In this document: piece by piece, positions 1-60,753 of the stretch
Numbering within the stretch: the stretch's first letter is position 1
Layout of the letters: every line of letters starts with the position of its first letter
Source: an uncultured Clostridia bacterium
Lineage (GTDB): Bacteria; Bacillota; Clostridia; TANB77; CAG-508
Assembly: GCA_947601495.1 (NCBI GenBank)
Contig: CANQGE010000006.1
Span: 8,190-72,189 of the forward strand
Reading direction: 5' to 3'
Length of the DNA stretch: 64,000 nt
The notes under the pieces: generated by a model
Told to the model about the DNA's origin: nothing
Seen by the model: the letters and a program-made list of their open reading frames with translations, nothing else
Databases searched by the model: none
Translations under genes and position numbers: made by a program

Positions 1-1499
1 TCCATTGGTTAGATAACATTCAAGACTGGTGTATATCTCGTCAATTATGGTGGGGACATAGAATACCAGCATATTATTGCGAAGATTGTGGGAAAATTAT
101 TGTATCTAAAAATTCTCCAGAAAAATGTACAAAATGTGGAAGCAAAAATTTAAAACAAGATCCAGATACATTGGACACTTGGTTTAGCTCAGCATTATGG
201 CCATTTTCTACATTAGGCTGGCCAAATGAAAATTCAGAAGATTATAAAGAATTTTATCCAACACAAACATTAGTTACAGGATTTGATATTATAACTTTCT
301 GGATTTCTAGAATGATGACTCAAGGCTTAGAGTTTACAAATCAAGTACCATTTAAAGATGTTTTAGTTCACGGAATTGTAAGAGATAATCTTGGAAGAAA
401 AATGTCTAAAACACTTGGAAATGGAATAGATCCATTAGATGTAATAGAAGAACATGGAACAGATGCTTTAAGATTTTCACTTCTTTCTGGAACAACAATG
501 GGAAATGATATTAGATTTATGCCAGAAAAAGTAGAACAAGCTTCAAACTTTGCAAACAAAATTTGGAATGCTGCAAAATTTATAACTATGAATTTAGCTG
601 ATGATGAAAAAGTAAAAGAGTTTGAACTTGAAGTATTTGAAAAAAACCATAAATATAATCCAAATCTATTAAAAATAGAAGACAAATGGATTTTAAATAA
701 ATTAGATAAATTAATTGCAGATGTTACTAAAAACATTGATAATTACGACTTAGGAATTGCACTTGATAAAATTTATTCATTTATTTGGAATGAATTTTGC
801 GATTGGTATATTGAAATGGTTAAACCAAGAATTTATAGTGAAGACGAAGAAACAAAAATTGAAGTAAGTTACGTTTTAAATCATGTTTTTACATCTTCTT
901 TAAAACTACTACATCCATTTATGCCTTTTGTAACTTCTGAAATATATTCAAAATTAATATGCTCTGGAACAACAGATTTAATGATAAGTAGTTGGCCAAA
1001 CATCATTGAGGAATTTGCATTTGAAGAAGAGGAACAAACTGTTGAAAAATTGAAAAAGTTAATAGCAGAAATAAGAAATGTTAGAACAAAAATGAATGTT
1101 CATCCATCTAAGAAATCAAAATTATTAATTATTTCAAGCAAGCTAGATAAAGAATTAAAAGAATCTGAAGGATTTTTAATTAAACTTGGATTTGCAAATG
1201 AAATTGTTTTTGTAAAAAATGAAAAAGAAATTCCTCAAAATGCTGTTTCAATAGTAGTAGATGATTTAAAAGTATTTATTCCTTTTGAAGAATTAGTAGA
1301 TATTGAAGAAGAAATAAAAAGGCTTGAGGGAGAGAAAACAAAACTTGAAGCAGAAGTTTTAAGAGGAGAAAAAATGCTTTCAAATCCAGGCTTTGTAAAT
1401 AAAGCGCCAGAGAAAAAAGTAAATGAAGAAAAAGCAAAATTAGAAAACTATAAACAAATGCTTATAAACGTTGAAGAAAGACTAAACAGTTTGACATAA
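1..1499 (+). CDS. valS: valine--tRNA ligase, 3' portion (5' end upstream of window)
   Basis: Frame 3 open from window edge (HWLDNIQDWCISRQLWWGHRIPAYY...), KMSKT class-I signature, long C-terminal coiled coil typical of ValRS; stop TAA 1497-1499. Confidence 0.93.
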   Translation, partial: HWLDNIQDWCISRQLWWGHRIPAYYCEDCGKIIVSKNSPEKCTKCGSKNLKQDPDTLDTWFSSALWPFSTLGWPNENSEDYKEFYPTQTLVTGFDIITFWISRMMTQGLEFTNQVPFKDVLVHGIVRDNLGRKMSKTLGNGIDPLDVIEEHGTDALRFSLLSGTTMGNDIRFMPEKVEQASNFANKIWNAAKFITMNLADDEKVKEFELEVFEKNHKYNPNLLKIEDKWILNKLDKLIADVTKNIDNYDLGIALDKIYSFIWNEFCDWYIEMVKPRIYSEDEETKIEVSYVLNHVFTSSLKLLHPFMPFVTSEIYSKLICSGTTDLMISSWPNIIEEFAFEEEEQTVEKLKKLIAEIRNVRTKMNVHPSKKSKLLIISSKLDKELKESEGFLIKLGFANEIVFVKNEKEIPQNAVSIVVDDLKVFIPFEELVDIEEEIKRLEGEKTKLEAEVLRGEKMLSNPGFVNKAPEKKVNEEKAKLENYKQMLINVEERLNSLT

Positions 1500-1519
1500 G
1501 TGCAAAATTATGGTATAAT
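1491..1519 (+). promoter_or_regulatory. sigma-A type promoter TTGACA-17-TATAAT with TG extension; -35 abuts the valS stop codon
   Basis: TTGACA 1491-1496, TG 1511-1512, TATAAT 1514-1519, facing the GC-rich ORF at 1603. Confidence 0.55.
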
Positions 1520-1602
1520 AATATTGAATTTGCGAGTATTTTACCGCAAATGGTATCAAAGCCATGCAATGCGACCTGTAAAGAAGAAAGGAGTGAATAA
1601 AC

Positions 1603-2082
1603 ATGGCTAACTCGGAGGATTTGACTTGTTACCTTGTGGGGCGGTACATCAAGAAGAACTATCACATCAAGTTCATCACCGATGAGGACTTGATTGAGGT
1701 TCCGAATGGAAAGTACAGTGCCTTTGGCATGAACAGGGAGAGAGTGTTCGTTGTCTGGGTTGGACACACACTGGTTGTTGCGTCCGTATTCCAGAACGGT
1801 AGTTACGTTACTCGAGACTACGACATGACCTACAAGGGCGAAGAAGGCGATCGCTCCGTCCATTACTACGAGTTCTATTCCTACGACGAATACAAGAAGA
1901 CGATCGCCAAGGTATTGGAAATGATGAATGACGAGTGCGATACCAAGAAGATTAGCGAGGATGAGGTGATTAAAGTTCCTGGAGCGTATCCAGTGTACGT
2001 GGCCTGTTTCGGCGAGTTTCTCGTTATGGCACGGGTTTACACGAGCACCAACATCGAGGTCGAAACTCGATACATCAACTGA
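1603..2082 (+). CDS. hypothetical protein, 159 aa, compositionally foreign (about 50% GC)
   Basis: AAGGAG 1588-1593 upstream of ATG; 159 uninterrupted codons using AAG/ATC/GAG/TAC instead of host AAA/ATA/GAA/TAT; GC hairpin terminator follows; no family recognised. Confidence 0.7.
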   Translation: MANSEDLTCYLVGRYIKKNYHIKFITDEDLIEVPNGKYSAFGMNRERVFVVWVGHTLVVASVFQNGSYVTRDYDMTYKGEEGDRSVHYYEFYSYDEYKKTIAKVLEMMNDECDTKKISEDEVIKVPGAYPVYVACFGEFLVMARVYTSTNIEVETRYIN

Positions 2083-2098
2083 TAGTCAAATCCTTCAG

Positions 2099-2127
2099 CG
2101 CCCTTCTCATGAGAGGGGCGTTTGAAA
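2099..2127 (+). terminator. rho-independent terminator of the 159-aa ORF
   Basis: CGCCCTTCTC / GAGAGGGGCG inverted repeat followed by TTTGAAATTTT. Confidence 0.7.
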
Positions 2128-2165
2128 TTTTAATAATAAATATAGGGGCAAAGAAAGGAAAATTT

Positions 2166-2971: not shown

Positions 2972-4945
2972 ATGGAAGATTTAGTAGAAAGCATATTAGA
3001 TTATGTAAGAGCAGATTATACAGACTATGCCATAATGATAAATGGTGAATGGGGTAGTGGAAAAACTTATTTTTGGAATAATAAAATAAGAAATAAAATA
3101 GATTCATTATCTTTAAATGGAAAAAAATATTCAACTATATATATGTCTTTATATGGAATTTCTAACTTAGAAGATATAAGCAAAAAAATATTTATTGAAA
3201 CTACTCAATTAATGGATAAAGACATGAAAAAATATATGATGGCACATGATACAACATCTATTCCAGAGTATGCTAAAACAGGGCTAGATATGGCACATCT
3301 TTTTGGAGCAAAACAAACTGGAGATAAATTTGATTATGGTCAATTTTTCTCAACAGATGATAAGGTTTTATGCTTTGATGACTTAGAGAGAGCAAACGTA
3401 GATGTTATAGATATTTTAGGATATATTAACAATTTTGTTGAGCATGACCACATTAAAACAATTATTATTTGTAATGAAAAAGAGCTTGCAACAAAACTTA
3501 AAAGCTCTAACTTAGAGATGAAAACTTTTATAGCAACATATCTTTTAGATAAAGAAGGAACTCTTTTAAATGCAGATAAACCACTAGTTGAAAAAATTAC
3601 TGAGAAAATTGAATATATATTTGACAAAGCAAATGATTATGAAAGAATAAAAGAAAAACTTATTGGTGAAACTTTTGAATATGCTCCACAGTTTAGCTAT
3701 ATAATTAATGGACTTTTAATGAGATATGAGTCAAATCCAGATTTAATTAGATTTTTAAGAGAACACACAAATTTAATTACAAATACTTTTATAAAATCTG
3801 GAACTAGAAATTTAAGAATTTTGAAACATGCTTTAAACGATTTCAAAAAGATTTATGAAACAGTAAATAAATTTTATCCAAACACAAATTTAAGAGTTTT
3901 ACAAACTATGCTAATATTTACAATTGCTGTATCTTTTGAAATAAAAGCAGGAAAAATTACTAAAGATAAATTTGTAAATATTAATTCAAATGAAGAATAT
4001 AAAGCAATATTAGTTTCTTCAAGAGTTTTAATGGATAATAGACAATTTTATATAAAAGAATTCGATAACAACTATTATTTCAATTTTAAATCAGAATATA
4101 GATTCTTCAAATTCATAGAAATGTATGTAAGAGACAGAATATTTGATATGAAAGTATTCAAACAAGATATGGAAATGATAATTGAAACAATAGATACAGA
4201 AAAACTACCAGGATATAAAAGACTACTTATTGAAGAATATTGGAAAATATCAGATGACCAATTTCCAGCAGTTATTGAGGAAGTAATTGAAAATGTGGAA
4301 AATGGAGATTTAACACTTATTGAACTTGTTAAATTATTTGCATATTTTAGCTATTTTTCAAGAAAAAATTTAATTCCTTATGATATGCCAACAATAAAAG
4401 AAAAATTTTTAGAAGGAATGGATTTAGTTGCAGAAAAATCAGAATATTGTAGCAATATATCAGAAGAACTTTCAAGAATAGGAATTGATGTTGGCGAAGA
4501 CATGAAAGATATTTTAAAACATTTCCATGAACTTAATAAAGAATTAAAGAAAAAAATGTATAAAGATAAAGCAGAAGAAATATTTAAATGTATACCAATG
4601 AAAATGGAAGTATTTTATGACAAGTTTACTTCTGAATGTATGGAAAAACCAATATTAAATTATTATGATACTTATAAAATGGTACAGAGAATTACTTGTG
4701 CAAGCAATGAAGATATAGTTAAAATAAAAGAAATGCTATTAGATAGAGCAAGAAAAAATAAATCACAATTGTCATCAGAATTAGATTTTATGGTAGATTT
4801 AAAATCAGAGCTTGAAAAATATTATAAAGATAAAGAAACAAGTATAAAAACAGTTATGATAAAAGAATTTACAGAAGATTTGCAAACAATAATAGATATT
4901 TATAGTGATATGCCAAAGAAAACTATATTTACAAGAAAAAAGTAG
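2972..4945 (+). CDS. KAP-family P-loop NTPase-like protein
   Basis: Walker A GEWGSGKT near N-terminus and KAP-type Walker B CFDDLER; AAAGGAGG RBS; 657 aa with long helical C-terminal region. Confidence 0.65.
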   Translation: MEDLVESILDYVRADYTDYAIMINGEWGSGKTYFWNNKIRNKIDSLSLNGKKYSTIYMSLYGISNLEDISKKIFIETTQLMDKDMKKYMMAHDTTSIPEYAKTGLDMAHLFGAKQTGDKFDYGQFFSTDDKVLCFDDLERANVDVIDILGYINNFVEHDHIKTIIICNEKELATKLKSSNLEMKTFIATYLLDKEGTLLNADKPLVEKITEKIEYIFDKANDYERIKEKLIGETFEYAPQFSYIINGLLMRYESNPDLIRFLREHTNLITNTFIKSGTRNLRILKHALNDFKKIYETVNKFYPNTNLRVLQTMLIFTIAVSFEIKAGKITKDKFVNINSNEEYKAILVSSRVLMDNRQFYIKEFDNNYYFNFKSEYRFFKFIEMYVRDRIFDMKVFKQDMEMIIETIDTEKLPGYKRLLIEEYWKISDDQFPAVIEEVIENVENGDLTLIELVKLFAYFSYFSRKNLIPYDMPTIKEKFLEGMDLVAEKSEYCSNISEELSRIGIDVGEDMKDILKHFHELNKELKKKMYKDKAEEIFKCIPMKMEVFYDKFTSECMEKPILNYYDTYKMVQRITCASNEDIVKIKEMLLDRARKNKSQLSSELDFMVDLKSELEKYYKDKETSIKTVMIKEFTEDLQTIIDIYSDMPKKTIFTRKK

Positions 4946-4989
4946 ATGAAAATTAAAGAACAAAATACTTTTTTAAGAAAGGAAATAAT

Positions 4990-5823
4990 ATGTTTAAAAT
5001 AGGTTGTCATTTATCTGCATCTAAAGGATATCTAGATATGGCAAATGTTAGCGAAAAAATCGGAGCAAATACTTTTCAATTTTTTACTAGAAATCCTAGA
5101 GGCGGGCAAGCTAAAGATATAGATGAAAATGATGTAAAAGCATTTTTAGAAAAAGCAAAAGAAATTGGAATAGAAGTTATTTTAGCACATGCACCATATA
5201 CATTAAATTGTGCTTCAAGCGATGAAAAAATTAGAAATTTTGCTAAAGAAACGATGAAAGATGATTTAATGAGAATGGAATATACTCCAAATAATTTATA
5301 CAATTTTCATCCAGGAAGTCACGTTGGACAAGGTGCCGATGTAGGAATAAAATATATTATTGAAATTTTAAATGAAGTATTAAAGGAAGACCAAACAACA
5401 ACTGTTTTATTAGAAACTATGGCTGGAAAAGGTTCTGAAATAGGTAGAAATTTTGAAGAACTAAAACAAATTATAGACGGAGTAAAATTAAAAAATAAAC
5501 TTGGTGTTTGCTTAGATACTTGCCATGTAAATGATGCAGGATATGATATTGTAAATAATTTAGATGGTGTACTTGAAGAATTTGATAGAATTATAGGACT
5601 TGACAAATTAAAAGCTATTCACATAAACGATAGTAAAAATCCACTTGGAGCACACAAAGATAGACATGAAAAAATTGGAGAAGGCACAATTGGAATAGAA
5701 GCTTTTGAGCGAATTATTAATCACGAAAAATTAAGAAACTTACCATTTTTCTTAGAAACACCAAATGAATTAGATGGATATGAAAAAGAAATAAAATTAT
5801 TAAAAAATTTATATAAAAATTAA
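4990..5823 (+). CDS. nfo: deoxyribonuclease IV (endonuclease IV)
   Basis: Collinear with E. coli Nfo: [47 protein letters not shown]. Confidence 0.92.
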
Positions 5824-5965
5824 TAAATTTTTAAGGTTAATTTAAGAATCATCGTATAAAATTATTTCATACTAAAGAGAAGGGAGAGATGCGATGGTTC
5901 TTTAATTTTATGTACAAAAAGAAGAATAACAAAAAAATAAATAAAATCCCCAAATAAATAAAAAA

Positions 5966-6000
5966 AGAAGGTTCTTATTTAATAAGAATCTTCTTTTTTT
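5966..6000 (+). terminator. rho-independent terminator
   Basis: AGAAGGTTCTTATT / AATAAGAATCTTCT stem followed by T7. Confidence 0.75.
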
Positions 6001-6005
6001 CGCTT

Positions 6006-6173
6006 CTTATAGTACATATATATTATTTTTCTAAGTTACTTGTTGTCGCAATCTTTTTATTAAAAATCTTAAATTTAAAATAATAATAATAAAGATTGCT
6101 CCAATCGCCCTTCGCTTACGCTTCGGTTGGTCGCTACGCGTAACTTTAAAAAATAATATATATGTACTATAAG
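6006..6173 (+). repeat. structured intergenic repeat, copy 1 (34-bp palindromic arms around a conserved GC-rich core)
   Basis: Arms CTTATAGTACATATATATTATTTTTCTAAGTTAC (6006-6039) and their reverse complement (6140-6173). Core TTGTTGTCGCAATCTT...AAGATTGCTCCAATCGCCCTTCGCTTACGCTTCGGTTGGTCGCTACGCG is nearly identical to 47922-48013 and 50745-50834. Confidence 0.88.
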
Positions 6174-6325
6174 AACGTTATATATAAATATTATGAAAAA
6201 CTATAAAATTTATTATTTATAAACTCTATAAATTTATATAAAATACCAGAATTTAAATTTACAAAATATCTTTACAAATATATGTAAAATTGATAAAATA
6301 TGAAAAAATTTAAAGGAGATAAAAA

Positions 6326-7240
6326 ATGAAGCATGTAATTGATATTAAGGATTTATCCGTTGAAGAAATCGATAGTTTGATTAAAGTAGCTAAAGATATT
6401 ATCAATCACAAAGAGAAATATTCTCATAAATGTGATGGTAAGAAATTAGCTACTTTATTTTTTGAGCCAAGTACTAGAACAAGATTAAGTTTTGAATCAG
6501 CAATGATGGAATTAGGTGGAAATGTAATAGGATTTTCAGAAGCCTCATCAAGTTCTGTTTCAAAAGGAGAAACAGTAGCAGATACAATAAGAGTTGTAGG
6601 ATGTTATAGTGACATCATAGCAATGAGACATCCAAAAGAAGGAGCTCCTTATGTTGCATCAATGAAATCAGAAGTTCCAATTATAAATGCTGGAGATGGT
6701 GGACATAACCATCCAACACAAACTTTAACAGATTTACTAACAATAGAATGTGAAAAAGGAAGACTAGATAATTTAACAATAGGACTTTGTGGAGACTTAA
6801 AATTTGGTAGAACGGTTCATTCTTTAATAACAGCTATGTCAAGATATAAAAATATAAAATTTGTACTTATTTCACCAGATGAATTAAAGCTTCCAGAGTA
6901 TATTAAAAAAGATATTTTGGAGAAAAATAATATAGAATATGTAGAAACAAAAAGTATGGATGAATATATGAAGGATTTAGACATCCTTTATATGACAAGA
7001 GTACAAAGAGAAAGATTCTTTAATGAAGAAGATTATGTACGTTTAAAAGATTACTATATTTTAAATAAAGCAAAATTAGAAAATGCTAAAAAAGATTTAT
7101 GCATTTTGCATCCATTACCAAGAGTTAATGAAATTTCAACAGATGTTGATGATGATCCAAGAGCTTGCTATTTTAAACAAGTAAGATATGGAAAATATAT
7201 TAGAATGGCATTAATTTTAAAATTATTGGAGGTAAAATAA
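6326..7240 (+). CDS. pyrB: aspartate carbamoyltransferase catalytic subunit
   Basis: STRTR, HPTQ and HPLPR motifs; AAAGGAG RBS. Confidence 0.95.
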
Positions 7241-7665
7241 TGAATATAGATAGTATAACAAACGGATATGTAATAGATCACATTAAAGCAGGAAATGCAA
7301 TGAAAATATATGAGCTTCTTAATTTAAATAAACTAGATTGTCAAGTAGCAATTATAACAAATGCAAAAAGCCAAAAAACTGGAACAAAAGACATTATAAA
7401 AATAGATAAAGATATAGATATCGATTTTGAAACCTTAGGATTTTTAGACCATAATATTACTGTAAATATAGTAAAAGACAGCAAAATAATTGAAAAAAGA
7501 AAATTAGACTTACCAGAAACTATTATTAATGTTGCAAAGTGCAATAATCCAAGATGTATAACTTCAATAGAAAAATATTTAGATCAAATTTTTGTTTTAA
7601 CAGATAAAGAAAATGAAGTTTATAGATGCAAATATTGTGAAATGAGTTTAAAAAACAAAGAATAA
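7240..7665 (+). CDS. pyrI: aspartate carbamoyltransferase regulatory subunit
   Basis: Overlaps pyrB stop; N-terminal GYVIDHI and C-terminal Zn cluster CNNPRC...CKYC. Confidence 0.9.
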   Translation: MNIDSITNGYVIDHIKAGNAMKIYELLNLNKLDCQVAIITNAKSQKTGTKDIIKIDKDIDIDFETLGFLDHNITVNIVKDSKIIEKRKLDLPETIINVAKCNNPRCITSIEKYLDQIFVLTDKENEVYRCKYCEMSLKNKE

Positions 7666-7759
7666 ATAATCATTGAAATTTTTATAATTTACAAAAAAAT
7701 GTATATTTTTTTCCTTTTTTGTCATACTAAGAATATAAAAACAAAATAAGGAGGAATTT

Positions 7760-8314
7760 ATGAAAGCAACAGGAGTAGTAAGAAGAATAGATGATTTAGG
7801 TAGAGTGGTTATTCCAAAGGAAATTAGAAAAGTTCACAGAATAAAAGAAGGAGATCCACTTGAAATTTTTACAGATAAAGAAGGAGAAATTATATTAAAA
7901 AAATATTCTCCAATAGGTGAACTTACAGAATTTGCTTCAACTTATGCAGATACTATATCAAAAACAACAGGGCACATTGCTTGTATTACAGATAAAGATA
8001 CAGTTATCGCGGTTGCTGGTGGACCTAAAAAAGAATTTTTAGAAAAAAACTTAAGCAAAGAGCTAGAAGAAGTAATGGAAAATAAGGAAATTTTCAAAAG
8101 CAAAGAAAATAATGAAATTGCTATACCTATAACTCAAAATGAGGGAAGAGAAAGAATTTATAATTCTCAAGTTATATATCCAATAATCACAGATGGTGAT
8201 GTTGTTGGAAGTGTTATACTTCTTTCAAAAGAACCTAATCAAAAAATGGGGGATGCAGAAGATAAAGTTGCACAATCAGCAGCTGGATTTTTAGGAACTC
8301 ATTTAGAAATTTAA
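7760..8314 (+). CDS. spoVT: stage V sporulation protein T (AbrB-family regulator with GAF-like domain)
   Basis: MKATGVVRRIDDLGRVVIPKEIR...EIILKKYSP is near-identical in pattern to B. subtilis SpoVT; length 184 aa. Confidence 0.92.
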   Translation: MKATGVVRRIDDLGRVVIPKEIRKVHRIKEGDPLEIFTDKEGEIILKKYSPIGELTEFASTYADTISKTTGHIACITDKDTVIAVAGGPKKEFLEKNLSKELEEVMENKEIFKSKENNEIAIPITQNEGRERIYNSQVIYPIITDGDVVGSVILLSKEPNQKMGDAEDKVAQSAAGFLGTHLEI

Positions 8315-47727: not shown

Positions 47728-47740
47728 TTTTGCACATTTT

Positions 47741-50665: not shown

Positions 50666-50708
50666 TGATTTATGTCTATTATGTTTGAAATTCTTATAAC
50701 TTGCAATT

Positions 50709-52032: not shown

Positions 52033-53334
<1,302 letters not shown>

Positions 53335-53335
53335 A

Positions 53336-54694
53336 ATGAGAGAAATAGTAGAAGATTTATTTAAAATATATGTATCTGCAATAGATAGCAATACTGGTAA
53401 AATTATACAAAACATAAATGAAAAATATACACTTATAGATAAATCTATGATTTCAACATACTTATACTTTAAAATATTAAACAATTTAAAAATTGAAAAT
53501 GAAGATTCAAAAACTGTTTTAATGAACTATTTAGTAAAACAAGTTATTTATGGAGAAACTGGAAATTTAAGCTTAGAAATTTCTGATAATTCCAGAAAAG
53601 AATTATATGATGAAATTATAAATAAATTAATAATAGAGCAATTTGAATATAAAAATAGAATTTTAAAATGCTTGAAATATAATTATGTTCAAATGGATAA
53701 CAACATATATTGTGATTTATTAGAATTTTGTGAAAAAATTGCAGAATACTATATTCTAGATAAGTTTGTTAGAAGAGGCAATCAAGAAGCAAAAGAATTA
53801 ATGGCACAAGAAAAAAACAAATTTAAAATTAATAAAAAGAATTTAAAAAATAAAATTAAAGAAATTTGTAAAGCAAAAAGTGAAACTGAAAATAATGCTG
53901 AAGAAGTTGAAAAAAGTAAAAAAGCTATAGATGAAAATATTGAGAAAATAGAAAAAGAAAAATTAAACTTATTAAATTTAATATTAAAAAATAAATTTAA
54001 AAACACAGAATATTATAATTTAATTCAAGTATCATTAAAATTAAAAGATGTTTATAGATATTCTACTTTAACAAGTGTAGTACCTGAAGATGTGCTTTTT
54101 CACCAATATAGCATGACTTTAGTTAATATGACTTTAGCAGATTATATGATTAAAAATGGTGAAAATATAGATAAATATGAACTAGTTAAGAAGTGCTTAT
54201 TTCACGATTTTAGTGAATATAAAGGAAATGAAATTGTGGCACAAATAAAAGTTTATAGTGATGAAACAAAGAAAATGTTTGCTGAAATAGAAGAAAAAGA
54301 TGAGCAAGAGCTAAAGGATCTTTTAGGAGAAGACTTATACATAATTATTAAAGAATATAAAAAAGGCAAAGAAGGCTACATTGCAGAAATAATAGATAAA
54401 TTTACTGGAATGATGAAACTTTGGGTAGAAGCCGGATATATGAATAATTATACATACATAAAATCAGTTTGCTCTGTTTATCAAGAAAGATTTAAAAAAT
54501 TTAATGATACTTCTAGAATTGATGATTTTAAAGATAAACTATTTTTGCAAAAATTATTAAAAGAAATTTTTATTTATATAAAAGAAAATTTAGTAAATTT
54601 AGATCCAAGAATTTTAACAAGATACTTTACAAGTGCTGAAATAAAGAGCTTTAAGAGGGAATTGAAATCTTTGAAGAAAAAAGAAATAATATAA
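53336..54694 (+). CDS. hypothetical protein with possible HD-domain core
   Basis: LFHQYSM ... CLFHDFSEYKGNE resembles the H...HD...D metal-binding pattern; start uncertain (53306 or 53336, no clear RBS). Confidence 0.45.
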   Translation: MREIVEDLFKIYVSAIDSNTGKIIQNINEKYTLIDKSMISTYLYFKILNNLKIENEDSKTVLMNYLVKQVIYGETGNLSLEISDNSRKELYDEIINKLIIEQFEYKNRILKCLKYNYVQMDNNIYCDLLEFCEKIAEYYILDKFVRRGNQEAKELMAQEKNKFKINKKNLKNKIKEICKAKSETENNAEEVEKSKKAIDENIEKIEKEKLNLLNLILKNKFKNTEYYNLIQVSLKLKDVYRYSTLTSVVPEDVLFHQYSMTLVNMTLADYMIKNGENIDKYELVKKCLFHDFSEYKGNEIVAQIKVYSDETKKMFAEIEEKDEQELKDLLGEDLYIIIKEYKKGKEGYIAEIIDKFTGMMKLWVEAGYMNNYTYIKSVCSVYQERFKKFNDTSRIDDFKDKLFLQKLLKEIFIYIKENLVNLDPRILTRYFTSAEIKSFKRELKSLKKKEII

Positions 54695-54752
54695 AAATAA
54701 AACTTTTGTTTGACAAATCAAATGTTTTGTGATAACATCTCTATAATAAAAA

Positions 54753-54764
54753 GAACGGAAGTTC
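54753..54764 (+). promoter_or_regulatory. LexA (Cheo/SOS) box
   Basis: GAACGGAAGTTC matches the Firmicute GAAC-N4-GTTC core, immediately upstream of lexA and downstream of TATAAT 54742-54747. Confidence 0.75.
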
Positions 54765-54788
54765 TATAAAAAGAAATGGGGTTATGTG

Positions 54789-55445
54789 ATGAGAAAAAAA
54801 GATCCAAATAGTTTAAATAAAAGAGAAAAAGCAATTTTAAAATTTATTGAAAAACAAATTAGCACAAATGGTTATCCACCATCTGTAAGAGAAATTGGAA
54901 AAGCAGTAGATTTAAAATCAACTGCAACTGTTCATGGATATATTTCTTCTTTAGAGAAAAAAGGATATATCAAAAAGGAAAGCCAAAAAGGTAGAACTCT
55001 TAAACTACTAAAAGGCGGGGCTATGGAAGGAGAGCAAATTGCTTTCGATAAACAAGCATATTCTAGTAGAGAAATGGTAGATGTACCAGTAATTGGAAAA
55101 ATTACAGCAGGAGAACCAATTCTAGCTGTTGAAAATGTTACCGATACTTTCCCAATTCCATTAGACTTTGTTGGAACAGGAGAAAGCTTTATGCTTACTG
55201 TTAGAGGAGAAAGTATGATAGAAGCTGGTATTTTAGATGGAGATTACATTCTAGTTAGAAAACAAAATACAGCAAACAATGGAGAAATAGTTGTAGCTTT
55301 AATAGGAGAAGAAGCAACAGTTAAAACTTTTTATAAAGAAAAAGATCACATTAGATTACAACCAGAAAATTCAACAATGGACCCAATAATAGTTCCAACT
55401 TGTGAAATTTTAGGAAAAGTATCAGGAGTATTTAGAAAAATATAA
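54789..55445 (+). CDS. lexA: LexA repressor
   Basis: N-terminal wHTH (GYPPSVREIGKAV), AG cleavage site, GESM catalytic Ser, VKTF Lys; GTG 54786 is an alternative start. Confidence 0.94.
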   Translation: MRKKDPNSLNKREKAILKFIEKQISTNGYPPSVREIGKAVDLKSTATVHGYISSLEKKGYIKKESQKGRTLKLLKGGAMEGEQIAFDKQAYSSREMVDVPVIGKITAGEPILAVENVTDTFPIPLDFVGTGESFMLTVRGESMIEAGILDGDYILVRKQNTANNGEIVVALIGEEATVKTFYKEKDHIRLQPENSTMDPIIVPTCEILGKVSGVFRKI

Positions 55446-55520
55446 ACCAGCAAAATATAATGTGAAGTATAGGTTAGTAAAAATTGAAAATACTAGCAAA
55501 AATATTCAAAAAATAAAATG

Positions 55521-55554
55521 GGCTTTTAAACTTATAAGTTTAAAAGCCTTTTTT
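55521..55554. terminator. bidirectional terminator between lexA and mutS2
   Basis: GGCTTTTAAACTT / AGTTTAAAAGCC stem followed by T-run. Confidence 0.75.
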
Positions 55555-55624
55555 AATAATATATTAAACTTCTATGTTAAATAGTTCACTATTTTAATTT
55601 TTAAAGTCATTCTTAATTTCATAA

Positions 55625-57964
55625 TTATTTTAATTCCACAATAGTAACTCCCATTTCGCCTTCGCCAAAAGTACCAATTCTAAAAGATTTCACGTGTGGG
55701 TGAGTTTTTAAAAATTTATGAATGCCTTCTCTTAAAGCACCAGTACCTTTTCCATGAACAATTCTAACATTTAGTAAGCCAGCTAAATAGCAATTATCTA
55801 AGTATTTATCTATTTCAAAACAAGCTTCATCAACATTTTGACCAATAACATTTATTTCTGGAGAAACCGATTTTACTACAAATTCTTTTCTAGAAGAACT
55901 ATAGCTTTTTTCAACTTTTTTAGTTTTTTTACTATCTATTAGTTCTAAATCTTCTAGATTAAAAAACATTTTTCCAAGACCAAGTTCAACTTGAATTTTG
56001 CCTTCTTTAGAAATTGAAATAATTTTTCCAACTTGATTTATCTTATTTACAAAAACTTCCATTCCAACAGATAAATCAGATAAATTTAAGCTTTTTTGAG
56101 CACTAGATTCTTTGAAATCAACATTTAAATTATTTATTTTATCATTTAATTTTTTTCTTAAATTATTTGATTCTTTATTAGTTGAAGAGTTTTCAATTTC
56201 CTTAATTATTTCATTTGCATCTTCTTTTGCAGAAAGAAGAATATTTCTAGCTTCTTGTTTAGCATTATTTATAATTTCTTTTTGTTCTTCTTTTAAATTT
56301 GAAAAATCAAATTCTAGAGATTTCTTTAAATCTGCAACTTCTTTTGAATTTTTTAAGATTTTTTCTTTTTCATATTCTATTTCTTGCTTATCTTTATAAA
56401 TATTTGTAAGAAGTTCTTCAATGTTTATTTTTTCTGTTGAAATTAATTTTTTTGCATTTTCAATTATTTCTTCAGAAATTCCAAGTTTCTTACTTATAGA
56501 AAATGCATTACTGGTTCCTGGAACACCAAGTAGCAATTTATATGTTGGAGACAAAGTATTTAAATTAAATTCTACACTGGCATTTTCAAAACCATTATTA
56601 ACTAAAGCAAAATGCTTAATTTCTGGATAATGAGTGGTTGAGATAGTTAGACAATCTATAGAATTTAATTTTTGTAAAATACTTATTGCTAAACTTGAAC
56701 CTTCAATAGGATCTGTACCAGAGCCTAACTCATCTAATAAAACTAAACTATTTTCAGTTACATTATTTAAAATAAAAGCAATGTTTGTTATATGTGATGA
56801 AAATGTACTTAATGAATCTAAAATACTTTGCTCATCACCAATATCTGCAAAAATATTATCAAAAGCGAAAATTTTACTTCCTTCATTTGCCGGAATGTGA
56901 AGACCACTAAGAGCCATTAAAGTCAATAATCCAGCTGTTTTTAAAGTAACAGTTTTACCGCCAGTGTTTGGACCAGTAATAATTAAACTGTTATATTCTT
57001 TTCCAATAATAATATCATTTTTTACAGCTAATTTTTTGTCTATTAAAGGATGCCATGCCTGTTTTAAATAAAGCTCTTTTTTATCAGTAATTATTGGCTC
57101 TGTGGCATCTATAGAATTTGAATATTTAGCTTTAGCAAATATGAAATCAATAATTCCAATTAAATTAACGTTGTTTTCAATATTTGGAATTATATTAAAA
57201 AATAAAGATGATAGCTTTTGTAAAATTTTTTCAATTTCAATGTTTTCTTCATTTTTTAAATTATTTAAATCATTATTTAAATCAAAAACAGAAATGGGCT
57301 CAATAAAAACAGTAGAACCACTTGAAGAAATGTCATGAATAAATCCTTTTACTTCAGAGCGATATTCATTTTTAACTGGAATAACAAAACGACCAGAACG
57401 TATTGTTACAACAGGTTCTTGAATATATTTAGAATGTAGAAAAGAATTTAATTTTGAACGTATTTCTTGTTCTTTATTTTTAATATTTCTTCTTATATTA
57501 TTTAATTCTTTTGATGCATTATCTGAAACGGTATTCTCATCTATGATTGCAGAAAAGATAGCTTTTTGAGTTGAAGGATTTATATATAAATTATTAAATA
57601 ATCCTTCTAAATTTACAAATTCAGACATATCAATTTCTGTAGAGAAAAAATAATCTTTTAAATCAGAACATAATTTTAAAATATTTGCTAAGTCTAATAA
57701 TTGCTTTATATTTAAAAATAAATTACTATTTAATTTTTTTATATGTTCTGTAGTATTTTCAATTTCACACATAGGAATAGAGCCTTTTCTATATAAAAGA
57801 ATAGAGGCCTCTGTTGTTTGCTTTTGAGCTTTTACTATTTCATTTATGGAAGATAGAGTTTTAAGATTATTTGAATAATTTTTGCCAATATAAGTAACAG
57901 CAAAGCTTTCTAGTATTTTGCAAATTTTATTAAATTCTAATTTTTCTATATTTTTTAAATTCAT
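55625..57964 (-). CDS. mutS2: endonuclease MutS2 (MutS domain + C-terminal Smr)
   Basis: Walker A GPNTGGKT, DELGSGTDP, C-terminal Smr (VRIVHGKGTGALR); 779 aa. Confidence 0.94.
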   Translation of the reverse strand: MNLKNIEKLEFNKICKILESFAVTYIGKNYSNNLKTLSSINEIVKAQKQTTEASILLYRKGSIPMCEIENTTEHIKKLNSNLFLNIKQLLDLANILKLCSDLKDYFFSTEIDMSEFVNLEGLFNNLYINPSTQKAIFSAIIDENTVSDNASKELNNIRRNIKNKEQEIRSKLNSFLHSKYIQEPVVTIRSGRFVIPVKNEYRSEVKGFIHDISSSGSTVFIEPISVFDLNNDLNNLKNEENIEIEKILQKLSSLFFNIIPNIENNVNLIGIIDFIFAKAKYSNSIDATEPIITDKKELYLKQAWHPLIDKKLAVKNDIIIGKEYNSLIITGPNTGGKTVTLKTAGLLTLMALSGLHIPANEGSKIFAFDNIFADIGDEQSILDSLSTFSSHITNIAFILNNVTENSLVLLDELGSGTDPIEGSSLAISILQKLNSIDCLTISTTHYPEIKHFALVNNGFENASVEFNLNTLSPTYKLLLGVPGTSNAFSISKKLGISEEIIENAKKLISTEKINIEELLTNIYKDKQEIEYEKEKILKNSKEVADLKKSLEFDFSNLKEEQKEIINNAKQEARNILLSAKEDANEIIKEIENSSTNKESNNLRKKLNDKINNLNVDFKESSAQKSLNLSDLSVGMEVFVNKINQVGKIISISKEGKIQVELGLGKMFFNLEDLELIDSKKTKKVEKSYSSSRKEFVVKSVSPEINVIGQNVDEACFEIDKYLDNCYLAGLLNVRIVHGKGTGALREGIHKFLKTHPHVKSFRIGTFGEGEMGVTIVELK

Positions 57965-58035
57965 AATTATTTCCTTTTACAATTGATATTAATATAATAG
58001 CATAAATTAGGCATAAATAAAAGAGAATAAGCCAT

Positions 58036-58081
58036 AAAAAACAAGCGCCGGGGATTTACTTTTTAAGGTAAAGCCCCGGCT
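58036..58081 (-). terminator. terminator of the 97-aa GC-rich ORF
   Basis: GCCGGGG / CCCCGGC stem; on the minus strand followed by GCTTGTTTTTT. Confidence 0.65.
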
Positions 58082-58090
58082 TATCCGGTT

Positions 58091-58384
58091 TTAGCACCAA
58101 ACACTAATTAGGTGGACGATGGAGCATATTCCGGAAATGACGAAGATTAGGATTCCTATGGATGTTATCGGGCAACGTCGGAAAGTTATCTTTTTGTTAT
58201 ACGCCAACACCACATCCGCGCGTTCGGCAAGCGCAAAGGCGATGGTCCAGAAAAAGGACGAGACGGCAACAGACAGCGCCCTGCTTGATTCGGGAAAAGA
58301 AATTATGAAGAAGTATCCCAGAGCAATGCTGAATAAAGTTGCCGCAACATAGCGCAGGAGTTTCTTGCTGATTCTAAGCTTCAT
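58091..58384 (-). CDS. hypothetical small membrane protein, 97 aa, compositionally foreign
   Basis: AGGAGG RBS before ATG 58384; three predicted TM segments; preferred over the antisense ORF 58119-58352, which lacks an RBS. Confidence 0.6.
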   Translation of the reverse strand: MKLRISKKLLRYVAATLFSIALGYFFIISFPESSRALSVAVSSFFWTIAFALAERADVVLAYNKKITFRRCPITSIGILIFVISGICSIVHLISVWC

Positions 58385-58665
58385 GTAAAACGCCTCCTAT
58401 TGTTCGCACATTGCATATGCCATAAAATTAGGAACTAAACCATGTCAACCAACCCCCTCAAATTATTGATATCTATATAAAATAGAGCACATAGCTCTTT
58501 ATAGTATAGTGGAATGGATTTTTTTCTAAACAGGTTACCTTTTGGTATTTTAACACCAAAAGAGTAAAAAGTCAATTTATGTAAACATTTTAAAATTAAA
58601 TATTGGAAAAAATTAAAAATAATGGTAAAAGAAAAAATTAAAAAAAGCGAGTCATATATGAAAAA

Positions 58666-58694
58666 TTGATTTATAAGCTTTTTTTTGATATAAT
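58666..58694 (+). promoter_or_regulatory. promoter TTGATT-17-TATAAT (TG-extended)
   Basis: TTGATT 58666-58671, TGATATAAT 58686-58694; hairpin AACAGAAC/GTTCTGTT follows in the 5' UTR (58719-58746). Confidence 0.55.
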
Positions 58695-58783
58695 ATATAT
58701 AACCACTGGTTGGAGGTAACAGAACAAAAATTGGAGTTCTGTTAGAATTAGGCTATCGACGACGGAAGAAAGGAAGATGAAGA

Positions 58784-59593
58784 ATGGCCAAGATTTGTCG
58801 GGTTAGCAACTGGAACTACATCATGGAGAATGGAGGAACTTGCAGGAAGTGCCCCAACTGGAAGAACTGCCCCAGCTGGAAACGACGGATAAGGAATCAG
58901 CAGGCTCAGAAAGCCACAATGAGGGCACTCGCCGTGATTTTCGTCATCTTGGTTGTGGTTCTCGGACTGCTGCTGGGATTGGCGATTAAGACGGTTGCCT
59001 CGCACATCTTTGCGCCCGAGCCTCACGTGCTCATGCCCCAAGCGGATTTCAGACCCGCTGTCACCCAGGCTCCGCAGATACGCGAATTCAGGACGCAGGA
59101 GGAACAGGAAATCTGGGAGATGGTTGAGGAACTCATGCCAATTCCGTCTCTTAGTCCGGAAGGACCGAGTGAAGCTTACTACTATCGACTGGACGCTGAC
59201 GAAAAGATGTGGATAGCAAAGTTGGTCTTTGTTGAGGCAAAAGATCTCACGTTCGAGGAGAAGGTGGCAGTTGCCAGCGTGGTGATAAATCGCTACTTCT
59301 ATGCGGACGAGCGATTCAACAGAGAGTCAGTAAGGTCTGTTGTTATTCAGCCAGGACAGTTCAAGAGTGTAGCAAACGTTACCACGGACGACGTAAATTC
59401 TGTACCAGACTGCATGAGGGCTGTTCAAACGGCGTGCAAGGGATGGGATCCTACTAGGAGAAAATTCCCGAATGGTGCGAAGTTTTTCTTCTTCGACGCT
59501 GTTATCGATTGCGTCGACGCTGCAAAACTTCAGAATGCGAACTACTACTCACTGGGAAGACTGCACTTTTCTGAAGACCCAATCGACTACTAA
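58784..59593 (+). CDS. membrane-anchored SleB/CwlJ-family cell wall hydrolase (Hydrolase_2) with Cys-rich N-terminus
   Basis: WIAKLVFVEAKDLTFEEKVAVASVVINR, VVIQPGQFKSV, GWDP aligns with B. subtilis SleB catalytic-domain motifs. N-terminal CRVS..CRKCPNWKNCPSW followed by TM helix ALAVIFVILVVVLGLLLGLAI. Confidence 0.8.
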   Translation: MAKICRVSNWNYIMENGGTCRKCPNWKNCPSWKRRIRNQQAQKATMRALAVIFVILVVVLGLLLGLAIKTVASHIFAPEPHVLMPQADFRPAVTQAPQIREFRTQEEQEIWEMVEELMPIPSLSPEGPSEAYYYRLDADEKMWIAKLVFVEAKDLTFEEKVAVASVVINRYFYADERFNRESVRSVVIQPGQFKSVANVTTDDVNSVPDCMRAVQTACKGWDPTRRKFPNGAKFFFFDAVIDCVDAAKLQNANYYSLGRLHFSEDPIDY

Positions 59594-59656
59594 TTCTAAA
59601 GCAAGCGACGGAGCAGGGCGAATACCCAGCACCGTCGCTTACTGCGTTTATAAAAT

Positions 59657-59685
59657 TTTACAAGTTAACGTAAACGTGATATAAT
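59657..59685 (+). promoter_or_regulatory. promoter TTTACA-17-TATAAT (TG-extended)
   Basis: TTTACA 59657-59662, TGATATAAT 59677-59685; preceded by hairpin AGCGACGG/CCGTCGCT 59604-59639. Confidence 0.55.
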
Positions 59686-59768
59686 ATATACGTAGCCTGT
59701 TTAATGGTCTCCATGTTGGCTTTCACTTCAAGTGATTGCAACAAATAATTTTAAGGAGGGTTGTGACC

Positions 59769-60551
59769 ATGGCCAAGACTACTTTGAAACTCGTAGAACT
59801 GATGCGAACAGGCTCAATCAGGATCTACGACGGTATGGAAATCGTTGTCCCACAGCTCAACCGGACCGACGAGATTCACCTAGGTGGCTCGGACAAGCCT
59901 ACCGGGGCCTACAGCATTCGCAATGGATCAGTCGCGTTTTGCTGGGATGGTGACCTGTACGTTTGCCCTGACACCGCCTCGAACGTAACCGTACTGCGTG
60001 AAGCAGGATTCGAACGACGCTACTTCGACGTGCCACTTTCTAACGGAGAGTATCCGGCTAGGGAGGCAAAAAAATGGCAAGAACTGCTCAACAAGGCTGG
60101 AGAGGAGGATTCTCGAGAATATGAGATGATGTGCAGAAGGTTCTGCAACCAGAGAGGCATAATGCCCATTCCCAGAGAAGAGCTTTCGCTGTGCCTCGAG
60201 GTGCCGAAAACCGGAATACTCGTGAAGCACCCGTACTACAGCGATGTCGTTTACCCCATGTTGCTGGGAAAGCACTTCGGTAAGAGGGAACAGGACCTGT
60301 TGGGACGCTACAGCGTCATTGGTGACTTTTTGGCCTACGTGCACGTAGACGGAAAAACCTACGTAACACGTCGAGGCTTTGAGGCAGAGCTCAAACATTT
60401 CGGATATAGGAGGGATCATTTCTGCGTTCCGTTCTCGAATGGTGAGAAGATTGTCGACCCTGTCTTAGCCGAAAGGTGGGAGGAATTGCTCAAGCGAGAA
60501 CTCGAGTGGGAGCTGATGTGCTCGAACGCGAGCAAGAACGACAGAGGCTGA
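59769..60551 (+). CDS. hypothetical protein, 260 aa, two homologous half-domains, compositionally foreign
   Basis: AAGGAGG RBS before ATG 59769; internal duplication (see findings); no family recognised. Confidence 0.7.
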   Translation: MAKTTLKLVELMRTGSIRIYDGMEIVVPQLNRTDEIHLGGSDKPTGAYSIRNGSVAFCWDGDLYVCPDTASNVTVLREAGFERRYFDVPLSNGEYPAREAKKWQELLNKAGEEDSREYEMMCRRFCNQRGIMPIPREELSLCLEVPKTGILVKHPYYSDVVYPMLLGKHFGKREQDLLGRYSVIGDFLAYVHVDGKTYVTRRGFEAELKHFGYRRDHFCVPFSNGEKIVDPVLAERWEELLKRELEWELMCSNASKNDRG

Positions 60552-60581
60552 CGCCAATGGTCTTGATGTGCATTGCATGTC

Positions 60582-60622
60582 AAAAAAGACGGAGAATGGG
60601 AAACCAATCTCCGTCTTTTCTT
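60582..60622. terminator. bidirectional terminator between the GC-rich ORF and tRNA(CAU)
   Basis: AGACGGAGA / TCTCCGTCT stem with an A-run before and a T-run after. Confidence 0.75.
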
Positions 60623-60699
60623 TGGTGCGCCCTCAAGGATTCGAACCTTGGACCAACCGGTTATGAGCCGGTTGCTCTGACCAACTGAGCTAAGGGCGC
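60623..60699 (-). tRNA. tRNA with CAU anticodon (elongator Met or lysidine-modified Ile2)
   Basis: Reverse complement GCGCCCTTAGCTCAGTTGGTCAGAGCAACCGGCTCATAACCGGTTGGTCCAAGGTTCGAATCCTTGAGGGCGCACCA; lacks the initiator features (no 1:72 mismatch, no GGG/CCC anticodon stem). Confidence 0.9.
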
Positions 60700-60724
60700 A
60701 TCTTTTATTTCTAAGACAAGACTT

Positions 60725-60753
60725 ATTATAAACGATTGAGATTAATATGTCAA
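60725..60753 (-). promoter_or_regulatory. promoter of tRNA(CAU)
   Basis: Minus strand TTGACA (60748-60753), 17-bp spacer, TATAAT (60725-60730). Confidence 0.65.

Follow-up and report, generated by a model that had tools for sequence, protein, structure and literature searches.

GC-rich expression cassettes between housekeeping genes of an AT-rich gut Clostridia chromosome, with a base composition that may be maintained

INTRODUCTION

Atypical base composition is routinely read as a time stamp of recent horizontal transfer, and the locus described here raises the question of whether this reading holds for gene-sized GC-rich patches in an AT-rich gut bacterium. The locus is a stretch of 64,000 nucleotides (nt), here referred to as the window, from an uncultured Clostridia bacterium (assembly GCA_947601495.1, contig CANQGE010000006.1, positions 8,190 to 72,189), and it contains five such patches with seven small open reading frames (ORFs), termed p1 to p7. 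An earlier inspection of the sequence, here referred to as the original prediction, noticed the patches and proposed that they were decayed remnants from a single higher-GC donor, a dispersed and envelope-directed accessory gene set, or an assembly artifact. Our data firmly establish that the patches are intact, chromosomally inherited accessory genes, organized as autonomous cassettes, and that recombination at a small number of intergenic sites drives their turnover. Furthermore, the GC excess is stable throughout the family and goes with the transcribed region, which the original prediction had not foreseen. With a probability of roughly 0.45, we read the patches as moron-like accessory cassettes in which a GC content of about 50% is maintained by a GC-favoring pressure on the transcript and is not the decaying signature of a donor.

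RESULTS

The GC excess coincides with predicted transcripts

Sliding windows place the patches at positions 1551 to 2150, 31601 to 31950 plus 32051 to 32550, 34651 to 35250, 58051 to 58450, and 58701 to 60620 (six GC peaks in five patches), with a GC content of 41 to 62% in 100-nt windows against a background of approximately 20 to 30%. The existence of GC-rich patches in an AT-rich chromosome is thus borne out, although the mean of the window is nearer to 26% than to the 23% first given for the background. Codon positions were then split for every nonoverlapping ORF of at least 100 amino acids (aa) in the window, with the short p2 and p5 being computed separately. The GC content at third positions (GC3) was 0.08 to 0.18 in 47 host ORFs and 0.55 to 0.67 in the patch ORFs, intermediate values being absent, and it was 0.59 for p2 and 0.56 for p5. 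At third positions, the patch genes use A, C, G, and T at frequencies of.21,.32,.27, and.20, respectively, compared with.50,.06,.06, and.38 in the host genes. Codon counts confirmed the reported switch from AAA, ATA, GAA, TAT, and TTA to AAG, ATC, GAG, TAC, and CTG: for patch versus host genes, AAG accounts for 63% versus 10%, ATC for 38% versus 3%, TAC for 67% versus 10%, and CTG for 24% versus 1%. The excess is strongest at the third position and is present at all three codon positions and in the untranslated regions (UTRs). Dinucleotide signatures are clearly alike only for p6 and p7 (delta* of 31), the other patches being too short to judge.

The points at which the composition switches are the predicted transcription start and terminator of each cassette. 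The 5' UTRs have a GC content of 34 to 47%, the ORFs 46 to 52%, and the 3' ends with the terminators 40 to 54%, whereas the promoters, the divergent p2/p3 promoter region, the p5-p6 spacer, and the 41-nt p7 promoter have only 16 to 23%. The original prediction had already placed the switch inside the transcription unit in several cases. The predicted features of the cassettes, in window coordinates, are as follows.

1491 to 2127, plus strand: cassette p1, between valS and comFC
1491 to 1519, plus strand: p1 promoter, TTGACA-17-TGgTATAAT
1527 to 1602, plus strand: p1 5' UTR, with a 5' hairpin (TTTGCG..CGCAAA) and the Shine-Dalgarno (SD) sequence AAGGAG
1603 to 2082, plus strand: p1 ORF, 159 aa, GC3 of 0.67
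About 2093 to 2127, plus strand: p1 terminator hairpin
31584 to 31958, minus strand: cassette p2, adjoining tRNA-Leu(UAA) at 31342 to 31429
31958 to 31930, minus strand: p2 promoter, TTGACT-17-TATAAT
31923 to 31842 and 31605 to 31584, minus strand: p2 5' UTR and terminator
31841 to 31632, minus strand: p2 ORF, 69 aa, GC3 of 0.59
32010 to 32551, plus strand: cassette p3, divergent from p2
32010 to 32038, plus strand: p3 promoter, TTGAAA-17-TGaTATAAT
32045 to 32115 and 32518 to 32551, plus strand: p3 5' UTR and terminator
32116 to 32493, plus strand: p3 ORF, 125 aa, GC3 of 0.57, with N-terminal, middle, and C-terminal hydrophobic segments (start corrected to 32116 from 32041)
34567 to 35235, minus strand: cassette p4, between anti-sigma-like and histidine-kinase-like genes
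35235 to 35123 and about 34607 to 34567, minus strand: p4 GC-rich leader and terminator hairpin
35122 to 34646, minus strand: p4 ORF, 158 aa, GC3 of 0.55, with the N-terminal signal peptide MKKIISMLLVLIMCFSLFAVTAFA
58036 to 58575, minus strand: cassette p5, directly upstream of the mutS2 start
58575 to 58547, minus strand: p5 promoter, TTGACT-17-TGtTAAAAT
58540 to 58385 and about 58090 to 58040, minus strand: p5 leader and terminator
58384 to 58091, minus strand: p5 ORF, 97 aa, GC3 of 0.56 to 0.57, with three hydrophobic segments
58600 to 60620, no strand: divergent block, with an identity to the related locus L003 of 0.7 to 0.8 over p6 and its promoter and of 0.55 to 0.65 over p7
58666 to 59650, plus strand: cassette p6, with the promoter TTGATT-17-TGaTATAAT at 58666 to 58694
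58701 to 58783 and about 59600 to 59650, plus strand: p6 5' UTR and terminator
58784 to 59593, plus strand: p6 ORF, 269 aa, GC3 of 0.60, with a four-Cys motif, one transmembrane segment, and a Hydrolase_2 domain
59657 to 60622, plus strand: cassette p7, with the promoter TTTACA-17-TGaTATAAT at 59657 to 59685
59692 to 59768, plus strand: p7 leader RNA, a hairpin containing CUCC, followed by AAGGAGG
59769 to 60551, plus strand: p7 ORF, 260 aa, GC3 of 0.62 (start corrected)
60583 to 60622, plus strand: p7 terminator, abutting the 3' end of tRNA-Met
60623 to 60699, minus strand: tRNA-Met(CAU), which in the window and in the related loci L003, L004, and L005 forms the conserved right border of the variable mutS2-tRNA gap

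Each cassette would thus comprise a strong sigma-A promoter with an extended -10 region, a leader of 70 to 150 nt, a strong SD sequence, a small ORF, and an intrinsic terminator, and the cassettes occupy intergenic gaps between housekeeping genes. Near-consensus promoters with a 17-bp spacer precede every gene but p4. Of these six promoters, five have an extended -10 region, and the matches to the consensus are 12/12 with TG (p1), 11/12 (p2, p3, and p7), or 10/12 (p5 and p6). A GC-rich hairpin followed by a T run closes all seven cassettes (p2 and p3 were flagged by the terminator scan, and the others were read directly from the sequence). The proposal that every unit has its own sigma-A promoter, 17-bp spacer, and terminator therefore stands for the seven terminators and six of the promoters and fails for p4, for which the promoter scan found no consensus promoter. 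The 13-mer TGATATAATATAT has three exact copies in the 64 kb, all located at the -10 regions of p3, p6, and p7. In a survey of approximately 1.3 Mb of AT-rich loci, a sample biased toward p7 loci, 33% of the extended -10 promoters (TGnTATAAT with a -35-like hexamer) precede DNA of at least 40% GC, compared with 5.7% of windows. A spacer motif, TTTTATGTAAAT, was also seen in these loci; it is common to p2 and several unrelated GC-elevated families.

Inheritance and turnover of the cassettes

The best MutS2 match to the window (97% aa identity) is L003, from Lapin-015 bin83. Between the two loci, mutS2 and p5 are 97 to 98% identical, with a synonymous divergence (dS) of 0.076 and 0.044, respectively. 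Identity falls sharply at approximately position 58600 and returns to at least 0.94 at tRNA-Met, and within this interval p6 has a dS of 0.73, ten times that of the flanking mutS2. We regard 58600 to 60620 as an allele-replacement block. In conspecific pairs, the dS of p7 is likewise severalfold above that of the flanks. In the more distant locus L005 (80% MutS2 identity; mutS2 dS of 0.66), the order p6, p7, tRNA-Met is retained, and in the window, L003, and L005 both genes lie between mutS2 and tRNA-Met. The p7 promoter and leader are still recognizable in L005 (75% DNA identity; covariance score of 77 bits), with the proteins being 36 to 39% identical, and the GC3 of p7 is 0.62 in the window, 0.60 in L003, and 0.66 in L005. 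A comparison of syntenic loci had been proposed; related species have p6 and p7 at one site, with the p6-p7 block replaced between close relatives.

The exact p1 protein is present in five contigs from different samples, each time between valS and comFC. Strain differences in p1 comprise seven synonymous and no nonsynonymous changes, at an identity of 98.5% compared with 97 to 98% in the flanks. A search of 1.84 billion protein representatives returned no relative other than p1 itself, and p1 is hence an orphan; its single-sequence AlphaFold model (pLDDT of 35) is unusable, and hhalign found no relationship to the p7 family. On one further contig (L043, ENA ERZ27249546, positions 2619 to 2951), codons 1 to 36 of p1 continue in frame into a fragment of a T2SSE-type ATPase, through either a genuine rearrangement or chimeric assembly of the metagenome contig.

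One strain carries a second GC-rich cassette after p1 (L046, Logan DRR848825, positions 1245 to 1952), inserted after approximately window position 2140 and separated by an AT-rich spacer. Its promoter and 5' UTR are 82% identical to those of p1, the 5' hairpin is preserved via G-U and compensatory changes, and a copy of the p1 terminator follows. The 160-aa ORF between them, with up to 60% GC, shares only 33% identity with p1 across 80 residues and is a distant paralogue. This insert is a cassette-level presence/absence polymorphism, and since similar regulatory modules surround a diverged ORF, what is gained or lost is an entire expression cassette. Strains and species gain, lose, and exchange whole cassettes by recombination in the conserved flanking DNA; such turnover was seen for the p6-p7 block and for the extra p1-like cassette in one strain.

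Judged by substitution patterns, the genes appear to be under purifying selection. The assignment of p1, p6, and p7 as protein coding is well supported by sequence comparison, and support for p5 is moderate (94% identity in the sister species L003, with a nonsynonymous divergence [dN] of 0.028 against a dS of 0.044). For p2, p3, and p4, coding status is predicted solely from the ORF, the SD sequence, and third-position GC enrichment, and searches of Pfam, PHROGs, NCBIfam, and PADLOC found no family match for p2.

Persistence of the GC excess in the p7 family

In 59 metagenome loci with usable flanks, p7 homologues have a median GC3 of 0.50, compared with 0.17 for the remaining ORFs on these contigs. 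Four contigs, which come from mid-GC hosts, are exceptions; two of them combine a host GC3 of about 0.48 with a gene GC3 of 0.74 and 0.81. The 53 distinct copies from AT-rich hosts have a GC3 of 0.28 to 0.66 at identities down to 34%. No mid-GC-host copy exceeds 61% identity to an AT-host copy, so the two groups are not linked by recent transfer. A two-state model puts the GC3 expected under neutrality after the window-L005 divergence at 0.19 to 0.32 whatever the starting value, and at 0.24 to 0.32 for a start at 1.0. A single GC-favoring coefficient (S of approximately 1.6), fitted to the AT-rich hosts, predicts 0.82 at a host GC3 of 0.48, which is near the values observed.

Synonymous third-position changes were counted by parsimony. 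Changes from G or C to A or T (S>W) numbered 80 to 90 in one p7 clade, versus 73 to 78 in the opposite direction (W>S), and a shallow clade gave 8 to 11 versus 6 to 7, whereas neutral decay would predict an S>W:W>S ratio of 4 to 6:1; because parsimony is biased and the deep clade is partly saturated, the ratio near 1:1 is suggestive only. A match to the codon usage of highly expressed host genes had been named as an observation that would speak against anything unusual. In related AT-rich hosts, HU has a GC3 of 0.09, SpoVG one of 0.16, and a GroEL-like ORF one of 0.09. As genes of this highly expressed type show no elevation, the excess is not ordinary translational codon bias, and we rejected translational selection of that kind as an explanation.

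The p6 and p7 proteins and the p7 leader

Only p6 has a recognizable domain, as had been noted. It matches Pfam Hydrolase_2 (PF07486) with an E value of 5.4e-13 and 49.9 bits (gathering cutoff of 27) and the PDB structures of SleB catalytic domains 4F55 and 4FET with E values of approximately 1e-3. Among all seven proteins, NCBIfam yields only a partial SleB match for p6: the score against the SleB equivalog TIGR02869 is 48.6 bits, below the cutoff of 236.5, with the match confined to residues 135 to 236. An assignment as a SleB orthologue was rejected, as the score is far under the cutoff and the N-terminal peptidoglycan (PG)-binding domain is absent. From its sequence, p6 is predicted to be a membrane-anchored protein with a SleB/CwlJ-type cell wall hydrolase domain. 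Compared with the SleB/CwlJ spore cortex-lytic enzymes, its C-terminal half resembles the Hydrolase_2 catalytic domain, but its N terminus has a conserved four-Cys motif and a membrane anchor in place of the PG-binding domain. PADLOC defense models gave no match at E values of up to 0.1 for the seven proteins or the L046 paralogue.

The p7 protein consists of two tandem modules of approximately 115 residues, each ending in VPFSNGE(K/Y)I.DP.L...W. Module number varies, with two in the window (260 aa) and three in L003 (7055 to 8176, minus strand; 373 aa). The family comprises 28 clusters in a collection of 5.8 billion proteins and 203 metagenome loci, with 19 invariant columns; no named member and no Pfam domain was found among these, and p7 itself has no NCBIfam or PDB sequence match. 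The AlphaFold model of p7 has a pLDDT of 92, and Foldseek searches found no structural neighbor at an E value of 0.001 or below in PDB or BFVD (best PDB E value of 0.39). The protein p7 thus defines a family that is widespread in gut Clostridia and has a predicted new fold. Both p6 and p7 contain a copy of a 24-nt repeat (59465 to 59488 and 60432 to 60455; 83% identity) that specifies F(P/S)NG(A/E)K, which could be a common short motif or due to chance. In a human-gut contig (L098, positions 3540 to 7889) and its close relatives, from a common human-gut species, a p7 homologue is located upstream of gatC/gatA within a run of uncharacterized genes, among which 299-aa and 86-aa ORFs also have an elevated GC3.

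The leader RNA of the p7 family (approximately 85 nt) is conserved more strongly than the protein and contains the hairpin GATC-TC-CATG-TT-AGC/loop/GCT-T-CATG-AT-GATC. In the alignment, 87% of cells are paired, five pairs show compensatory changes, and the observed covariation was reached in 0 of 500 shuffles. Copies are located at 8174 to 8258 (minus strand) in L003, 8165 to 8247 (minus strand) in L005, 9917 to 10003 in L037, 9918 to 10004 in L038, and 2363 to 2449 in L042. The CUCC of the hairpin can alternatively pair with the SD sequence, which points to a putative translational switch. The leader belongs to no Rfam family. A regulon linked through it was considered and rejected, since a covariance model matches only the leaders of p7 homologues. 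A second conserved leader of approximately 140 nt, GTTAAC..GTTAACGGTAACAGTCAAACTCGACATAGACC..GCCCAGACTTACA..TCTGGGAACGAAAGTATAGAC, was observed upstream of another GC3-elevated protein family ('IIFITKxPQEF'), with copies at approximately 15782 to 15890 in L009, 14467 to 14600 in L013, 16051 to 16180 in L023, and 17678 to 17813 in L030; this leader has no Rfam match either.

Host lineage, assembly, and searches for mobile elements

A MutS2 scan in which each species was represented by a single genome found 34 loci, almost all from uncultured Clostridia metagenome-assembled genomes from the rabbit, ruminant, chicken, and human gut and including Candidatus Scatovivens. The host is a rabbit-gut Clostridia lineage related to Candidatus Scatovivens, and its close relatives all have a GC content of 24 to 30%. 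By Pfam, the neighbors of the patches are ordinary genes of the chromosome, among them valS, comFC, a KAP NTPase gene, pyr genes, alaS, a Spo0A_C-domain gene, lexA, and mutS2, together with an ECF-type sigma factor gene with its partner gene, a kinase gene, and tRNAs; two cassettes adjoin tRNA genes.

Both junctions of patches 1, 3, and 4 and both ends of patch 5 recur in independently made ENA and Logan assemblies; for patch 2, only the right side is independently covered, by three ENA contigs (L051 to L053) with p3 and its right neighbor. Logan contig L134 has p4 with both neighbors and spans both junctions, and an ENA contig and a Logan contig with the exact p6 and p7 proteins are 99.9 to 100% identical to the window over 52615 to 59707 and 58525 to 60662. 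Because independent assemblies reproduce most junctions, a chimera is rejected, and with it the assembly artifact among the explanations first offered, the junction-spanning contigs coming from several samples and two assembly pipelines. Conspecific low-coverage contigs (L051 to L053) end in or beside GC-rich ORFs, at 31975, 32229, 32429, and 34954, which suggests that short-read assemblies tend to break at composition switches.

No integrase, transposase, or recombinase was found among the patch ORFs, all of which were listed and scanned, or among the neighbors (Pfam). Direct repeats of at least 13 nt bracketing a patch, a tRNA 3'-end att repeat, intI, and a shared 3' recombination site were likewise not found for the window cassettes. 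The statement that the patches lack mobility genes and flanking direct repeats was therefore correct. A phage origin was rejected, as searches of PHROGs, three scans of IMG/VR, tblastn and blastn against INPHARED, and a fold search of BFVD yielded only the hydrolase domain, and a plasmid origin was rejected for want of any PLSDB match by tblastn or blastn. No GC-rich donor was found. Rfam gave only four tRNAs at the gathering score and nothing credible in 57800 to 60900 at E values of up to 10. A literature search found no description of the phenomenon or of the composition of these hosts. The idea of decayed remnants of a single higher-GC donor finds no support in these results: there is no donor, phage, or plasmid relative, p1 is an orphan, and the genes are intact and apparently under purifying selection. 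It is weakened further by related species in which p6 and p7 occupy this very site and by dinucleotide signatures that are clearly similar for p6 and p7 only.

Repeated intergenic elements that are AT rich were also observed in the window, at three sites that cross-match one another and the corresponding sites in L003 and L004.

5961 to 6218: repeat site with 79-nt inverted arms at 5961 to 6039 and 6140 to 6218
47737 to 48105: repeat site with a 101-nt tandem pair at 47737 to 47938 (96% identical) and an inverted copy at 48014 to 48066
50670 to 50950: repeat site with 37-nt inverted arms at 50708 to 50744 and 50834 to 50870 (97% complementary)

DISCUSSION

The data presented here fit best with a dispersed accessory gene set, one of the explanations offered originally. 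Its description as envelope directed is only partly right, as four of the seven proteins are predicted to be membrane associated or secreted: hydrophobic segments are present in p3, p5, and p6 and a signal peptide in p4, while p1, p2, and p7 look cytosolic. We propose that a GC-favoring pressure on the transcript, acting through mRNA stability, structure, or a special translation regime, would oppose the AT-biased mutation of the host and hold synonymous sites near 50% GC. Such a pressure is favored because the excess is bounded by the transcript, because the offset is nearly constant throughout the family, and because no decay was seen where time could be gauged. While the anatomy, inheritance, conservation, compositional offset, and boundaries of the cassettes can be read from the data, we infer that selection on the RNA is probably the force behind the offset.

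Several points weigh against this proposal. The patch genes of the window have a nearly flat codon use (AGG, 27%; CGA, 29%; ATA, 25%) and the wider p7 family avoids ATA, CTA, CGA, and AGG, a combination that fits no single codon-level rule. A mutS2 control shows strong parsimony bias at skewed composition. Syntenic p6 copies form a GC3 gradient (0.60, 0.54, 0.37, 0.30, and 0.19) that looks like amelioration or unequal pressure. Other GC3-elevated ORFs in the relatives, mostly uncharacterized accessory genes, form a continuum from 0.2 to 0.67, which is what classical lateral transfer predicts. The deep synteny rests on three genomes, and since the p6-p7 block has been replaced between close relatives, same-site alleles could be repeated imports. 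In addition, the promoters, transcription starts, and terminators are predictions from pattern matches, and the comparative evidence reaches none of p2, p3, and p4.

The main rival is recurrent, independent import from GC-richer organisms or from an unsampled mobile pool, by insertion at permissive intergenic sites that left no mobility genes behind, with cassettes at varied stages of amelioration and hypervariable sites resupplied by allele replacement. This would account for the foreign-looking composition and codon usage, the two patches next to tRNA genes, the replaced p6-p7 block with its tenfold-raised dS in p6, and both the p6 gradient and the GC3 continuum; some p7 homologues are located near integrase or recombinase genes (L037 and L038), and copies with a GC3 of 0.74 to 0.81 do exist in mid-GC hosts. 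We nevertheless consider it rather unlikely. The donor has not been found, p1 has no relative among 1.84e9 proteins, IMG/VR, INPHARED, and PLSDB gave no phage or plasmid match, and the relatives of p7 are almost all in AT-rich hosts, with the mid-GC copies being no more than 61% identical. Moreover, p1 and p5 evolve at the rate of their flanks, GC3 remains at 0.43 to 0.66 in AT-host p7 copies that are just 34 to 55% identical, the inferred S>W and W>S changes are nearly balanced, and untranscribed DNA within cassette arrays is AT rich.

This last feature also bears on GC-biased gene conversion, in which G/C-biased repair of heteroduplexes at recombination hot spots would raise the GC content with no benefit to the cell and which has been proposed for bacteria (discussed in PMC5303225). 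The replaced block, the gain or loss of a cassette, and the severalfold-raised dS of p7 all indicate frequent recombination, and an excess at all codon positions and in the UTRs with near-stationary changes is what such a process would give. However, conversion bias should ignore transcript boundaries, unless promoter constraint masks it, and the excess ends at promoters and spacers inside the recombining block (58600 to 58700 and the L046 spacer); p1 and p5 are equally GC rich but show no sign of excess recombination. To our knowledge, the effects reported for bacteria are far smaller than the change in GC3 from 0.12 to 0.6 that would be required, and we hold this explanation to be improbable. 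It is still less probable, to the point of being scarcely credible, that the patches are structured noncoding RNAs with accidental ORFs. Islands of high GC content in AT-rich genomes are, classically, RNA genes, the patches also contain long antisense ORFs, and the p7 leader is itself a conserved structured RNA, but Rfam gave no match to the patches, with nothing credible in 57800 to 60900 even at E values of up to 10, a Pfam domain is present in p6, conservation of the p7 family is at the protein level with a confidently predicted fold, the strain differences in p1 are all synonymous, and GC peaks at the third codon position. For p2 alone, such an RNA may be what the patch encodes. The stitching of GC-rich reads from other organisms into an AT-rich contig can be practically dismissed: the composition switches are abrupt and short conspecific contigs tend to end within patches, yet contigs from several samples and two pipelines span the junctions at 99.9 to 100% identity to the window, related species have homologous GC-rich genes at the same site, and the promoters are in the style of the host.

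A further-reaching form of the maintained-composition proposal, which we put forward as speculative, is that very AT-rich gut Clostridia carry cassettes kept at approximately 50% GC by gene-specific selection for an "isochore-like" mRNA design with a distinct fate of the message, while the housekeeping genes, highly expressed ones among them, have a GC3 of about 10%. Such messages might resist AU-directed RNases, be unusually stable or stored, or be decoded in a rarely used manner, and leader switches particular to one family, for example the anti-SD hairpin of p7, could accompany this design. The p7 family lies approximately 0.3 in GC3 above its host in dozens of species, and this offset is bounded by the transcript. 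If it is indeed maintained, then composition-based island detection would misdate such genes, and the cassettes would provide a gene-sized natural system in which to ask whether and why the GC content of bacterial mRNA is selected, a long-standing question that is otherwise reachable only via weak genome-wide trends.

Among known systems, the closest in anatomy is the phage moron, which in the concept reportedly due to Hendrix and Juhala is an extra prophage gene that carries a promoter and terminator of its own and differs in composition from its neighbors. The cassettes described here are likewise small autonomous units of distinct composition, with a sigma-70-type promoter and a factor-independent terminator, inserted between conserved genes. 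Unlike morons, they are flanked by housekeeping chromosome (valS/comFC, mutS2/tRNA-Met, and sigma/anti-sigma/kinase genes) and not by a prophage, have no phage relatives, and show a compositional offset that is conserved across species and not incidental.

With arrays of small cassettes, such as integron cassettes and the recombinase-associated acquired interbacterial defense clusters of gut Bacteroidales, they share small, fast-diverging genes, a pair (in L046) with a common promoter/5' UTR and terminator, and presence or absence at the strain level. However, integrases or recombinases, attC-like sites, and long arrays are absent here, the genes have strong promoters of their own, and Pfam, NCBIfam, and PADLOC gave no match to known immunity or defense families. 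The patches also differ from tRNA-linked integrative islands in having no integrase or recombinase and no att direct repeat. As for laterally acquired islets and ORFans, which ameliorate toward the host in the model of Lawrence and Ochman (as summarized in PMC5303225), the cassettes resemble them in atypical GC content and codon usage, mostly unassigned proteins, a patchy distribution, and tRNA-adjacent sites and differ from them in an apparent lack of decay where it could be measured, in a GC excess bounded by the transcript, and in having no detectable donor. Foreign DNA is usually richer in AT than the host (PMC5303225), whereas the cassettes are richer in GC.

The nearest precedents for the proposed force are genome-wide. 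GC-biased gene conversion in bacteria was described by Lassalle in 2015 (as cited in PMC5303225). The cassettes would have in common with such work a GC-favoring force set against AT-biased mutation, and GC-rich coding sequences have been linked to higher mRNA levels. Selection for higher GC at synonymous sites in bacteria is also said to have been found by Hildebrand in 2010 and by Raghavan in 2012. The effects known so far are genome-wide and small, whereas the one proposed here would be gene specific and very large, raising GC3 from 0.12 to 0.6, and would be confined to a small number of accessory families. The cassettes can be described as compositional islets or morons in which the atypical composition appears to be maintained and not inherited from a donor.

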